A stretch of 64,000 nt of DNA, taken from the sequence record MG770228.1. One strand, 5' to 3'. Both the position numbers and the translations under genes were made by a program. The notes under the pieces are model-generated. The model worked only from the letters and a program-made list of their open reading frames with translations, was not told the origin of the DNA and did no database searches. Positions 46,806-48,556 of the stretch are shown here, piece after piece. The stretch is from Escherichia phage PMBT57. Numbering within the stretch: position 1 is the first letter of the stretch; each line of letters begins with the position of its first letter.

Positions 46806-47243
46806 ATGTCATATGAAATTGTAAAACATTGGACTTCTAAGGCTGGGCTGAAAGCTTGGGTATTGCTGGTAAATGGTGGTAGTCATCATTGTGGTTACGT
46901 AGAAATACCTGAAGCATTACTGGATAAAAACTTCTATGACTATATCTGTGATGATGAAGAAACACTTCATATTGCAGTACATGGTGGAGTTACCTATCAA
47001 GGTGTTCCTCAGTGGGCTGATGGGATTAAAGTCATAGGTTATGACTGTGCTCATGCAGGGGATAAACTGAAATGTCCTAAACAATTCATTGGCTCTCTTA
47101 GGGAGAGACTCTATGAGGATTCTTATGGAGTATGGCGAGATGAAGAATACTGCATCAATGAATGTGAAAGCATGGCAGACCAGTTAATTAACCTGATACC
47201 AAAATTAGGGTTTAACGATGAAATTCAGAACAGTAATGGTTAA
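46806..47243 (+). CDS. Cys/His-rich hypothetical protein (145 aa), possible metal-binding
   Basis: Clusters GGSHHCGY, HIAVHGG, YDCAHAGD, KCPK, CINEC; no family recognised. Confidence 0.6.
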   Translation: MSYEIVKHWTSKAGLKAWVLLVNGGSHHCGYVEIPEALLDKNFYDYICDDEETLHIAVHGGVTYQGVPQWADGIKVIGYDCAHAGDKLKCPKQFIGSLRERLYEDSYGVWRDEEYCINECESMADQLINLIPKLGFNDEIQNSNG

Positions 47244-47415
47244 TGCTCTTGATACCAGGGGTAATGAAATCATTAGCTATAAAGTGCAAGGCTTTAAATG
47301 GTTCAAATGGAAAACATTAACTAGCTTTAAAGAATTTGAGAAAGATAAAGCTATTAAGTTAACCAAGAAGTTGAACCAACGTAAGAAGATTAAATTAGTT
47401 ACTGTAATTAAATAA
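47236..47415 (+). CDS. small basic protein (59 aa)
   Basis: Start moved to the internal Met (MVNALD) overlapping the upstream stop (ATGGTTAATG); Lys-rich. Confidence 0.45.
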   Translation: MVNALDTRGNEIISYKVQGFKWFKWKTLTSFKEFEKDKAIKLTKKLNQRKKIKLVTVIK

Positions 47416-47425
47416 GGATAAGGCA

Positions 47426-47584
47426 ATGCGTAAATCACTAATCATGGGAACCAAAGAAGACGTTGCTAAGATGAAAGCTAAACGTCAGATGAATAAAGCA
47501 GTAACGTTTGCAGAACGTTATAGTACGTCTGAACCAGTACGTCGTATTGTTACTTTCAACCATCCAGCTATTAAGGGTATGTAA
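47426..47584 (+). CDS. small hypothetical protein (52 aa)
   Basis: ATG preceded by AAGGATAAGG; stop overlaps the next start (TAATG); below the track cutoff. Confidence 0.4.
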   Translation: MRKSLIMGTKEDVAKMKAKRQMNKAVTFAERYSTSEPVRRIVTFNHPAIKGM

Positions 47585-47793
47585 TGCAAACTAAAGATAA
47601 GAAAGACTTAGAACGTCTTCTCCGTGTATATGGTGATTATGCATTGTTAGCAGAGATAACTAATATTATCGAAGAAGACTGTCGTAACGGTTATGCCAAT
47701 AACCCACAAGCAATAATTCATCGTGATGCAGTAGTGCTTAGAGAAGCAGTCAGTAAGATGCAAGTATTACATCCATTAAGACAACGAGCATAA
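47584..47793 (+). CDS. hypothetical protein (69 aa)
   Basis: Track ORF; a terminator follows. Confidence 0.55.
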   Translation: MQTKDKKDLERLLRVYGDYALLAEITNIIEEDCRNGYANNPQAIIHRDAVVLREAVSKMQVLHPLRQRA

Positions 47794-47805
47794 ATAGGAG
47801 GGGGC

Positions 47806-47836
47806 TACTAAGCCCTCTTCTTATTTTTATCGTGGT
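47806..47836 (+). terminator. rho-independent terminator
   Basis: ggagggggc ... gccctcttc stem (with G-T pairs) followed by TTATTTTTAT. Confidence 0.5.
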
Positions 47837-47866
47837 TATTAAGCAACTATCTTAGAGGAAGGAATA

Positions 47867-48082
47867 ATGGAACAGTTAAACTACGGTTATAAGATTAAAC
47901 GCAATCAAGTAAGAGGTTCTTGGTTATTTCTCGTTTATGGTAAACCAATCTATGAATTACATCGTGGAGAGAAATCCAAGACCTATTACGTAACTCATAT
48001 TGCTACAGGAAAAACTCCTGCATGTGCAGGATTGCTTCGTGATGCAATTATGAAAGCATGTATGTTAGAAGGACTTCTATGA
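47867..48082 (+). CDS. hypothetical protein (71 aa)
   Basis: RBS GAGGAAGG upstream of the ATG; track ORF. Confidence 0.55.
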   Translation: MEQLNYGYKIKRNQVRGSWLFLVYGKPIYELHRGEKSKTYYVTHIATGKTPACAGLLRDAIMKACMLEGLL

Positions 48083-48393
48083 ACCAAATCATTGCTATCC
48101 CGCAGCATAAAGCTCGTATTGCTGACAGGAATATTCGTATTCATTATCCAATGCCTTTGAGTAATCCATTTCAGAAAAATGAGAGAACCACGGATGAAGA
48201 TATAGCAGCAGCTTATGAGGCATATCTTCGTAACCGTTTGGTAAGTGGTGACAAGCTCATTACGGCTGAAATGGAACGAATTGCTAAATTCGTTATGGAT
48301 ACTACTGACAAACCAGTTGGCCTCATCGGTAATGAACTGGAAGTGAATGTAATCCGTAAGATTATTATGGAGGCTCTTAATGGGAATCAGTGA
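48079..48393 (+). CDS. hypothetical protein (104 aa)
   Basis: Start moved to MNQ, overlapping the upstream stop (ATGA); track ORF frame. Confidence 0.55.
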   Translation: MNQIIAIPQHKARIADRNIRIHYPMPLSNPFQKNERTTDEDIAAAYEAYLRNRLVSGDKLITAEMERIAKFVMDTTDKPVGLIGNELEVNVIRKIIMEALNGNQ

Positions 48394-48556
48394 ATCCCAG
48401 GCTATGGCTATTAAACAGTTAGCCTTCAACTGCCTTAGTGCTATGAAGGCATTTAATGAAGCAAAAACTTTCCCTGACCAGAATAAAGCTCGTATTCAAC
48501 TTTATCAGTCTAAGAAAGATTTTGAAGAATATCTGGAAAGTATTACGGTGAAATAA
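48380..48556 (+). CDS. small hypothetical protein (58 aa)
   Basis: ATG preceded by GGAGG; below the track cutoff; ends where the next gene starts. Confidence 0.4.
   Translation: MGISESQAMAIKQLAFNCLSAMKAFNEAKTFPDQNKARIQLYQSKKDFEEYLESITVK

Follow-up and report, generated by a model that had tools for sequence, protein, structure and literature searches.

The six small open reading frames at positions 47218–48556 of Escherichia phage PMBT57 are probably best explained overall as gp5–gp10 of an N4-type coliphage, lying within its early small-gene region. We analyzed a 64,000-nucleotide stretch of the phage sequence (MG770228.1; hereafter the window), which shares 98–99% identity with phage N4 and related phages and represents an Enquatrovirus genome in circularly permuted form. 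The six reading frames are N4 gp5–gp10, annotated in GenBank EF056009 / NC_008720 at nucleotides 1944–3282, and their order, lengths, overlaps and internal terminator are all alike in the two phages. Across positions 47000–49300 the window and N4 share 98.1% nucleotide identity and differ by few substitutions, and protein identity to N4 is 100% for gp5, gp6 and gp8, 98.6% for gp7, 98.1% for gp9 and 94.8% for gp10. N4 nucleotide 1, the left genome end, corresponds to window position 45275, and the first-pass annotation of this DNA was correct in seeing the block as early-region DNA of an N4-like phage. The genes gp5–gp10 are annotated throughout in N4 and its relatives, far beyond what is expected of chance reading frames; they are already known, long-annotated genes and form an ordinary early accessory region.

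Layout of the gp5–gp10 block

The block and its downstream neighbors are arranged as follows.

47218–47415, plus strand: gp5, 65 aa
47426–47584, plus strand: gp6, 52 aa
47584–47793, plus strand: gp7, 69 aa
47796–47821, plus strand: intrinsic terminator in the 73-nt gap between gp7 and gp8
47867–48082, plus strand: gp8, 71 aa
48079–48393, plus strand: gp9, 104 aa
48380–48556, plus strand: gp10, 58 aa
48556–48876, plus strand: gp11, 106 aa, PHROG 7827
48879–49247, plus strand: gp12, 122 aa, canonical DUF4326 protein with a CFCYPKPCHG motif

All six plus-strand frames, of 52–104 aa, are present where the first-pass annotation had listed them. Each starts with ATG and is preceded at 4–13 nt by a purine-rich SD-like stretch, and the ribosome-binding sites described earlier are borne out as strong in four of six cases (gp6, gp8, gp9 and gp10, including GAGGAAGGA before gp8 and a good GGAGG before gp10) and as weaker (AGGG/AAGGG) for gp5 and gp7. 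Junctions are close throughout: gp5 overlaps gp4 by 26 nt, 10 nt separate gp5 from gp6, and gp9 and gp10 overlap by 14 nt. The TAATG and ATGA couplings described earlier are found at gp6/gp7 (TAATG, the gp7 start over the gp6 stop), gp10/gp11 (TAATG, the gp10 stop over the gp11 start) and gp8/gp9 (ATGA, the gp9 start over the gp8 stop). These genes form two tight cassettes, gp4-5-6-7 and gp8-9-10-11-12 onward, with the intrinsic terminator between them. The earlier description of the block as lying between a terminator and the DUF4326 gene must be corrected, as the sole local terminator is inside the block and gp11 intervenes before gp12.

Coding evidence and purifying selection

Judged by their substitution patterns, the six frames are real genes under purifying selection. 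A 2901-nt alignment of ten Enquatrovirus genomes contains no indels and leaves every frame intact, and codon position 3 accounts for 30 of the 40 variable sites within the six frames (binomial p = 8.5e-8). Compared with distant orthologues, dN/dS is 0.14–0.36 where estimable, and pN is well under pS in other genera. The conservation analysis that the first-pass annotation had proposed therefore supports the genes: the frames are kept in relatives, free of indels and under purifying selection.

It is very improbable that some of these frames, especially the shortest or least conserved ones (gp10 and gp5), are untranslated annotation artefacts of an AT-rich region. Such a reading could draw on gp10, which is the least constrained of the six, with non-synonymous variable sites outnumbering synonymous ones among close relatives (3 versus 2), and which is nearly confined to Enquatrovirus (PHROG 35919; tblastn matches in 15 records, 14 from Enquatrovirus and one from Klebsiella phage MY01); on gp5, which has a weak SD and starts inside gp4; and on a search for proteomic support for the frames that found none. 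However, the frames are unbroken in 10 of 10 genomes, 128 unrelated T4-like phages of Klebsiella and Raoultella carry full-length gp5 homologues (about 46% identity), which sit beside a dCMP deaminase gene there, and gp10 combines the 38% identical MY01 homologue with its good SD. The competing 144-aa antisense frame at 47995–48429 is likewise unsupported by substitutions, and we rejected it as coding since the pattern fits the plus-strand frames; the variable third positions of gp9 are the first codon positions of this antisense frame.

Proposed early transcription and translational coupling

Two hairpin promoters of the type used by the virion RNA polymerase (vRNAP) lie upstream of the block.

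45364–45383, plus strand: P1, vRNAP-type hairpin promoter
45833–45853, plus strand: P2, vRNAP-type hairpin promoter

We defined vRNAP promoters as hairpins with a 5-bp stem and a 3-nt loop in the arrangement GCTYCGC...TTWTGG, and P1 and P2 both have a perfect 5-bp stem, a TTC or TCC loop and a following TTWTGG. Exact matches to GCTYCGCNNNTTWTGG occur only at 45367, 45836 and 49825, in the promoters beginning at 45364, 45833 and 49822, and the same hairpin motif is listed among N4-derived putative promoters in phage KP8 (PMC6950046 Table 1). The promoter pattern has no exact match within 46400–48600, leaving the block without an early promoter of its own, and P1 and P2 are the likely source of the transcripts that enter it. 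[quoted passage not shown] With N4 nucleotide 1 at window position 45275, the block thus lies 1.9–3.3 kb from the first-injected end as described in that work.

The terminator at 47796–47821 has an 11-bp stem with 6 GC pairs and a 4-nt loop followed by TATTTTTAT, folds with a dG of −20.1 kcal/mol (z = −3.9; 0 of 200 shuffled sequences fold as well) and is annotated in phages AL25 and Jura. The nearest upstream terminator, at 46353–46374, precedes gp3 and gp4, and an Rfam scan of 44500–50500 returned one sub-threshold L20-leader match at 46278–46388, outside the block. We propose that gp5–gp10 form part of a rightward small-gene region, gp3–gp14, that follows P1 and P2 at the first-injected end, in which putative transcripts from P1 and P2 would partly read through both terminators (46353 and 47796), giving graded early expression, and the stop/start overlaps would couple translation inside each cassette.

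gp8 is identical to N4 gp8, which inhibits host DNA replication

By sequence, gp8 is the N4 host DNA replication inhibitor, whose reported target is HolA, the delta subunit of the DNA polymerase III clamp loader. The fourth frame of the block is 100% identical over 71 aa to characterized N4 gp8 and matches Pfam PF25713 (N4_GP8) with 68 bits, above the cut-off of 25, covering model positions 1–62 of 62. Its computed mass of 8.1 kDa equals that given in Table 1 of PMC6466130, where N4 gp8 is entered as a protein of 71 aa and 8.1 kDa with HolA as its target, citing Yano & Rothman-Denes 2011; the same study is cited in PMC12817073 for the clamp loader as the target. Because the sequences are identical, HolA binding and inhibition of clamp loading by the gp8 of the window are near certain. 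Homologues of gp8 are found only in Enquatrovirus and in five Erwinia N4-like records (38–40% identity), marking N4_GP8 as a narrow family to which the other five proteins of the block are unrelated.

The first-pass annotation had pointed out that small early proteins of N4-like phages include host replication inhibitors, which is right, but it missed that one of the six frames is itself N4 gp8. Its proposal of uncharacterized host-takeover functions accordingly fails for gp8, characterized since 2011; gp5, gp6, gp7 and gp10 match no known family. The N4 small early genes resemble T7 gp0.4, gp2 and gp5.5, which are tabulated alongside N4 gp8 (PMC6466130 Table 1), in encoding proteins of 50–100 aa on first-entering DNA, of a class that acts by each binding a single host protein, although the T7 proteins have no sequence relationship with the reading frames of the window.

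gp9 is a predicted DUF4326 paralogue without the family motif

Sequence comparison and structure modeling together indicate that gp9 is a paralogue of gp12 with a predicted DUF4326 fold that has lost the Cys/His motif of the family. gp9 aligns with gp12 in BLASTP (E = 7e-8) and belongs to PHROG 464 (E = 5e-19), the family that also contains gp12. Against Pfam DUF4326 (PF14216) gp12 scores 81.6 bits and gp9 22.1 bits (E = 2.5e-4), the latter under the 25-bit cut-off. The AF2 model of gp9 (pLDDT 92) retrieved several phage proteins named 'DUF4326 domain-containing' from BFVD by Foldseek with probability 1.0 and TM 0.7–0.77, as well as Achromobacter N4-like homologues at TM 0.90, and the same search of the PDB gave no significant match. 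DUF4326 proteins and gp9 have the PLxNPF motif and central helices in common, and residues P26, L27, N29, P30 and F31 of this motif do not vary within the gp9 clade or between it and gp12. The earlier statement that none of the six proteins has a recognizable motif thus stands for four of them and fails for gp8, with its Pfam N4_GP8 match, and for the DUF4326-like gp9.

gp9 contains no cysteine. At the position of the canonical LxCxCxPKxCHG motif, all 30 of 30 aligned members of the gp9 clade carry PVGLIG, in a loop that is 2–4 residues shorter depending on the alignment. CxCxPxxCH is kept in every other DUF4326 copy sampled (25 loci), and the gp9-type copy is accompanied by an intact gp12-like copy in 14 of 14 loci. 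In a test of gp9 as a cysteine phosphatase or rhodanese-phosphatase, the loop joining the central strand to the next helix proved to lack the catalytic cysteine, and predicted strand 80–83 passes almost directly into helix 86–102. The protein is under constraint, with 60–75% identity across three genera and pN of 0.18–0.30 versus pS of 0.73–0.81, and the N-termini of its orthologues (MNEI/MNQI) support the 104-aa start over a 111-aa frame. Downstream of the block, gp11 and gp12 both have conserved counterparts in G7C and KP8 (dN/dS 0.06–0.22).

The DUF4326 fold has been predicted to process ADP-ribose-derived phosphates (PMC9503650). In our proposed mechanism, gp9 would act as a non-catalytic binder of a ligand or partner beside gp12 and the A1S_2505-family protein gp14, and the three proteins may handle nucleotides derived from ADP-ribose or NAD. 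The Cys/His cluster of DUF4326 could also be a structural zinc site and not a catalytic one, in which case loss of the motif need not mean loss of activity. We offer as a speculation, with low expectation, that gp9 is a pseudo-enzyme that has kept its PLxNPF ligand surface beside an intact gp12 throughout Enquatrovirinae history and serves as a non-catalytic trap or regulatory partner for an ADP-ribose- or NAD-derived nucleotide, and, separately, that an unpublished N4 inhibitor of FtsZ/FtsA, listed as 'submitted' in ref. 74 of PMC4496689, could be one of gp5, gp6, gp7 and gp10.

gp5, gp6, gp7 and gp10 are probable exchangeable accessory genes

The distribution of gp5, gp6, gp7 and gp10 is patchy and involves phage sets that differ gene by gene, which marks them as exchangeable accessory genes rather than core machinery. 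None of the four matched a known family or structure, and Pfam and PHROG searches gave no functional match for any of them. For the six proteins as a whole, a PDB search with one concatenated sequence returned nothing, and PADLOC and NCBIfam returned no match; among the papers covered by a literature search, none named N4 gp5, gp6, gp7, gp9, gp10 or gp12, or the Bas69 locus tags.

gp5 is very basic (pI 10.5) and is assigned to PHROG 2010, which has no function attached. Beyond the homologues in T4-like phages, none was detected in other N4-like genera; the homologue in KPV15 aligns from Met1 and supports the 65-aa start. Variable sites in gp5 among close relatives comprise 4 synonymous and 1 non-synonymous. 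A word-indexed protein search with gp5 found its own cluster only and a two-sequence profile found five clusters, and an AF2 model built from a five-sequence alignment was unusable (pLDDT 50.6). gp7 is predicted from its sequence to be all-helical and has tblastn matches in 21 records from Enquatrovirus, Erwinia phages Ea9-2/Tellus, Pseudomonas phages CL/CRC2 and Klebsiella phage KP8, with the homologue in Ea9-2/Tellus sitting in the middle region. Exhaustive HMMER searching of 1.84 billion proteins gave 31 gp7 representatives, and the conserved pattern is YG...Y.xN..A[VI]IH.D...M...HPLR; two of the 31, one a repeat protein and one sushi-like, look spurious. gp7 has no consistent Pfam match and no PDB match, its variable sites are 9 synonymous and 1 non-synonymous, and its dN/dS is 0.27–0.36. 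At position 47765 the window encodes Val in gp7, where 14 of 14 database relatives have Ala.

gp6 (PHROG 7648) is conserved throughout Enquatrovirinae and also in Pollock, with tblastn matches in 89 phage records that include G7C-like phages, pSb-1, Klebsiella N4-like phages and Pollock (85% identity). Its differences among close relatives are synonymous only, and dN/dS is 0.24–0.25 against G7C and Pollock. We consider it improbable that at least one of the small proteins serves the phage's own program instead of acting on the host, for example with gp6 assisting replication or middle transcription as a cofactor, such as 'protein X', the promoter-melting factor in the N4 RNAPII model. This idea would fit the basic character of gp6 (pI 10.7), its occurrence in the 89 records together with early transcription genes, its position in Pollock directly upstream of a gp2-like ssDNA-binding protein, and the description in PMC4496689 of an unidentified factor needed for opening AT-rich middle promoters. 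However, gp6 is undetectable by tblastn beyond enterobacterial N4-like phages, its G7C orthologue is missing 10 internal residues, and Pfam identifies no DNA-binding motif in it. We instead suggest that gp5 and gp6, both with pI >10, together with gp7 and gp10, may be small proteins that bind macromolecules of the host or the phage, as is typical of early accessory proteins in phages.

Relation to anti-phage defense

The first-pass annotation had also called the block a likely place for anti-defense functions. The support for this is indirect and comes from the predicted DUF4326 fold of gp9, for which a role is likewise only predicted (PMC9503650); against it, the mapped anti-signaling hotspot is elsewhere. 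In N4-like phages that hotspot was located experimentally between the primase and vRNAP genes and contains Acb4, Sequestin, Tad2/3, RyR Tad and Bes1/2 (bioRxiv 10.64898/2026.06.04.730250); according to work cited there, N4 acb4 triggers Panoptes. The hotspot and the gp5–gp10 block occupy different genomic places, though each is a variable Schitoviridae cluster made up of small accessory genes.

An anti-defense island, in which at least one of gp5, gp6, gp7, gp9 and gp10 neutralizes bacterial immunity, for example by sequestering or processing NAD- or ADP-ribose-derived signals, is a possible though unlikely reading that we rate above the other alternatives. It gains from the presence of the DUF4326 fold in both gp9 and gp12, from the membership of gp14 in the A1S_2505 family with macrodomain or ADP-ribosylglycohydrolase annotation in relatives, and from a DUF2493 (SLOG) gene directly 3′ of the gp9 orthologue in KP8. 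Patchy, horizontally exchanged genes are moreover typical of accessory counter-defense, and a location near the first-injected end favors expression before defenses act. Weighing against this reading, none of the six frames matched a known anti-defense family in Pfam or PHROGs, the mapped hotspot sits between primase and vRNAP, and the sole characterized member of the block, gp8, is a host-takeover protein and not an anti-defense protein. The early frames tested also showed no sequence similarity to the hotspot genes of phage CB1, in a comparison from which Acb4 itself was absent, and had no paralogue at other positions of the window or within that CB1 cluster. Upstream of the block, gp3 matched Pfam RIH_assoc, a RyR/IP3R domain, weakly (E = 7.7e-4). 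We rejected gp3 as a relative of RyR Tad and attribute the match to chance, as the resemblance of RyR Tad is to another RyR domain and gp3 did not align with CB1 gp68.

Implications

The gp5–gp10 block belongs to a model phage, is well annotated there and adds nothing new in itself. Five of its genes, gp5, gp6, gp7, gp9 and gp10, have no assigned function yet are clearly selected, making them cheap screening targets. The sole new point of our analysis is a small one, the possible pseudo-enzyme nature of gp9. DUF4326 proteins are widespread among phages and giant viruses as well as bacteria, and are without a solved structure or demonstrated activity, and gp9 and gp12 provide a natural dead/live pair for working out the role of the family. 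If gp9 does act as a non-catalytic trap or regulatory partner for such a nucleotide, it would represent a new sponge- or decoy-type counter-defense protein of enzyme origin.

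Results

The ORF list agrees with the sequence in showing six small plus-strand ORFs in the block examined here, and their counterparts gp5–gp10 are annotated in N4 (EF056009) and all annotated relatives:

47218-47415, plus strand, gp5, 65 aa
47426-47584, plus strand, gp6, 52 aa
47584-47793, plus strand, gp7, 69 aa
47796-47821, terminator in the gp7–gp8 gap, dG -20.1 kcal/mol, z -3.9
47867-48082, plus strand, gp8, 71 aa
48079-48393, plus strand, gp9, 104 aa
48380-48556, plus strand, gp10, 58 aa

The frames are kept in ten Enquatrovirus genomes and have orthologues in other genera. 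Across 2901 nt of the ten-genome alignment there are no indels, and third codon positions account for 30 of the 40 variable sites in the six ORFs (binomial p = 8.5e-8; 29 synonymous and 11 non-synonymous columns). In comparisons with orthologues from other genera, every gene has a pN well under its pS, and dN/dS is 0.14-0.36 wherever synonymous sites are unsaturated; gp10 is the least constrained (3 non-synonymous, 2 synonymous sites). Orthologue N-termini back the start codons that give gp5 65 aa and gp9 104 aa. These patterns show that all six ORFs are real genes. An antisense ORF of 144 aa (47995-48429) is unsupported as coding because the variable third positions of gp9 are its first positions.

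The first-pass annotation placed the block between a terminator and the DUF4326 gene, and neither boundary held: the sole nearby terminator is inside the block, and gp11 (106 aa) intervenes between gp10 and the canonical DUF4326 gene gp12. The 3′ end of gp4 overlaps gp5 by 26 nt, 10 nt separate gp5 from gp6, and 73 nt separate gp7 from gp8. TAATG is common to stop and start at gp6/gp7 and gp10/gp11, as is ATGA at gp8/gp9, and gp9 overlaps gp10 by 14 nt. Because stop and start codons overlap, the genes are predicted to form two translationally coupled cassettes, one on each side of the terminator. Good ribosome-binding sites had been ascribed to the block as a whole; gp6, gp8, gp9 and gp10 have strong Shine-Dalgarno sequences, and those of gp5 and gp7 are weaker. 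The block limits are arbitrary, with comparable small genes gp3, gp4, gp11 and gp13 outside them, and the small-gene region extends from gp3 to gp14. Within this region, gp4 (46806-47243, 145 aa) weakly matches a 'MazG-like pyrophosphatase' PHROG family (E = 2.4e-5) and also a PHROG of unknown function.

One block member is the host replication inhibitor to which the first-pass annotation alluded. Against a cut-off of 25, gp8 reaches 68 bits with Pfam PF25713 ('Bacteriophage N4 DNA replication inhibitor'), and its sequence shows 100% identity to that of N4 gp8, which Table 1 of PMC6466130, citing Yano & Rothman-Denes 2011, lists as a protein of 71 aa and 8.1 kDa with target HolA and process replication; a passage of PMC12817073 citing the same work attributes clamp loader inhibition to it.

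In a megablast of 47000-49300, every full-length match came from an Enquatrovirus phage (14 in total, at 98-99% identity), with N4 itself at 98.1% and vB_Eco_AL25 at identical coordinates but for a 1-base shift. The records nearest to the window are VEc25, SPSP and AL25 (99.2% each). Codon 61 of gp7 (47765) encodes Val here and Ala in 14 of 14 database Enquatrovirus records, so the window differs from every phage-collection record. BLAST of the N4 left end placed N4 nucleotide 1, the physical left end, at 45275, identifying the window as a circularly permuted N4-type assembly with a collapsed terminal repeat; a nine-C run lies ~30 nt to the right. The block is 1.9-3.3 kb from this end, which in N4 is injected first and bears all promoters of the virion RNA polymerase, vRNAP (PMC4496689). 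A search of all 64 kb for the vRNAP-type pattern (hairpin with 5-bp stem and TTC/TCC loop, then TTWTGG) gave exact matches at three sites only:

45364-45383, vRNAP-type hairpin promoter upstream of gp1, GTTGC-TTC-GCAAC, then TTWTGG
45833-45853, vRNAP-type hairpin promoter upstream of gp2, GAAGC-TCC-GCTTC, then TTWTGG
49822-49842, vRNAP-type hairpin promoter upstream of gp15 (a subunit of N4 RNAPII), GCTGC-TCC-GCAGC, then TTWTGG

The identical motif is listed among N4-derived putative promoters in the paper on Klebsiella phage KP8. None of these promoters lies within or just upstream of the block, so its transcription would depend either on rightward read-through of two terminators (46353 and 47796) or on RNAPII. 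An Rfam L20 leader match at 46278-46388 stays below threshold (25.5 bits; gathering score 58.7). It overlaps both the gp2 end and the 46353-46374 terminator, whose hairpin most likely explains it.

We searched 50,697 phage records by tblastn and found that each gene has its own range, a mosaic pattern characteristic of exchangeable accessory genes. gp5 occurs in 142 records, 14 from Enquatrovirus and 128 from Klebsiella/Raoultella T4-like phages, where it adjoins dCMP deaminase, and was not detected in other N4-like genera. In these T4-like Klebsiella phages, as seen in KPV15 (L014, 2501-2701), the gp5 homologue belongs to a run of small unknown ORFs and directly follows cd, the gene for dCMP deaminase, its start codon abutting the cd stop codon. 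gp6 occurs in 89 records (Gamaleyavirus, Klebsiella N4-like phages, pSb-1, Pollock); gp7 in 21 (Enquatrovirus, Erwinia Ea9-2/Tellus, where it lies in the middle region of the genome, Pseudomonas CL/CRC2, KP8); gp8 in 19 (Enquatrovirus and five Erwinia N4-like records at 38-40% identity); gp9 in 96, a count including Erwinia matches to the canonical DUF4326 gene that are not gp9 orthologues; and gp10 in 15 (14 Enquatrovirus and Klebsiella phage MY01). The N4-like phage G7C retains only gp6, gp9, gp11, gp12 and gp14 of the small-gene region.

For gp5, gp6, gp7 and gp10, PHROG matches are all of unknown function and searches of Pfam, NCBIfam, PADLOC and PDB gave zero matches. gp5 and gp6 are strongly basic (pI 10.5 and 10.7). 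The gp7 family has 31 representatives in 1.84 billion proteins, two probably spurious, and a conserved pattern, YG...N..A[VI]IH.D...M...HPLR. Our literature search found no mention of N4 gp5, gp6, gp7, gp9, gp10 or gp12. At its ref. 74, PMC4496689 credits an N4 inhibitor of FtsZ/FtsA to a submitted, apparently unpublished paper, leaving the gene unnamed; the uncharacterised small proteins of the block are plausible candidates.

gp9 matches PHROG 464 (E = 5e-19), to which gp12 also belongs, and aligns to gp12 with E = 7e-8; on Pfam DUF4326, gp9 scores 22.1 bits, just below the 25-bit cut-off. When 30 proteins of the gp9 clade are aligned with gp12 and with homologues from G7C, KP8 and Erwinia phage Frozen, the clade keeps the PLxNPF motif and has PVGLIG and a shortened loop in place of LxCxCxPKxCHG; gp9 contains zero cysteines. 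In a profile scan of 25 loci, an intact copy lies 0.6-1.9 kb downstream in 14 of 14 loci bearing the Cys-less copy, and all other sampled DUF4326 proteins (Pollock, Frozen, six uncultivated contigs) keep the motif.

In KP8 (L012, 3494-4155) a DUF2493 (SLOG-type) gene directly follows the gp9 orthologue; one BFVD match is a DUF2493 protein whose model includes the gp9 fold; and SLOG–DUF4326 fusions have been reported (PMC9503650). gp14 (49416-49802) is a strong member of NCBIfam A1S_2505 (154 bits) with no Pfam match, labelled variously in relatives as a macrodomain protein or ADP-ribosylglycohydrolase. gp9, gp12 and gp14 may form an ADP-ribose/NAD-related module.

Discussion

Anti-defence function, raised by the first-pass annotation, finds little support for the block. 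In N4-like phages, the anti-signalling hotspot mapped by experiment is located between the genes for primase and vRNAP and contains Acb4, Sequestin, Tad2/3, RyR Tad and Bes1/2 (bioRxiv 10.64898/2026.06.04.730250); work cited there describes N4 acb4 as triggering Panoptes. The early ORFs tested showed no resemblance to the hotspot genes of phage CB1. gp3 (46488-46802) matches the RyR/IP3R-associated Pfam domain RIH_assoc below threshold (E = 7.7e-4, 19.8 against 28.5 bits), probably by chance, since gp3 has no similarity to the recently described CB1 'RyR Tad' sponge. The only anti-defence lead is the gp9/gp12/gp14 cluster (DUF4326, DUF4326, A1S_2505).

All six genes of the block were already known and annotated in a model phage; gp8 has been characterised, and gp9 is recognisably related to its neighbour. 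The small new point is gp9 itself, a Cys-less DUF4326 paralogue always found together with an intact copy.
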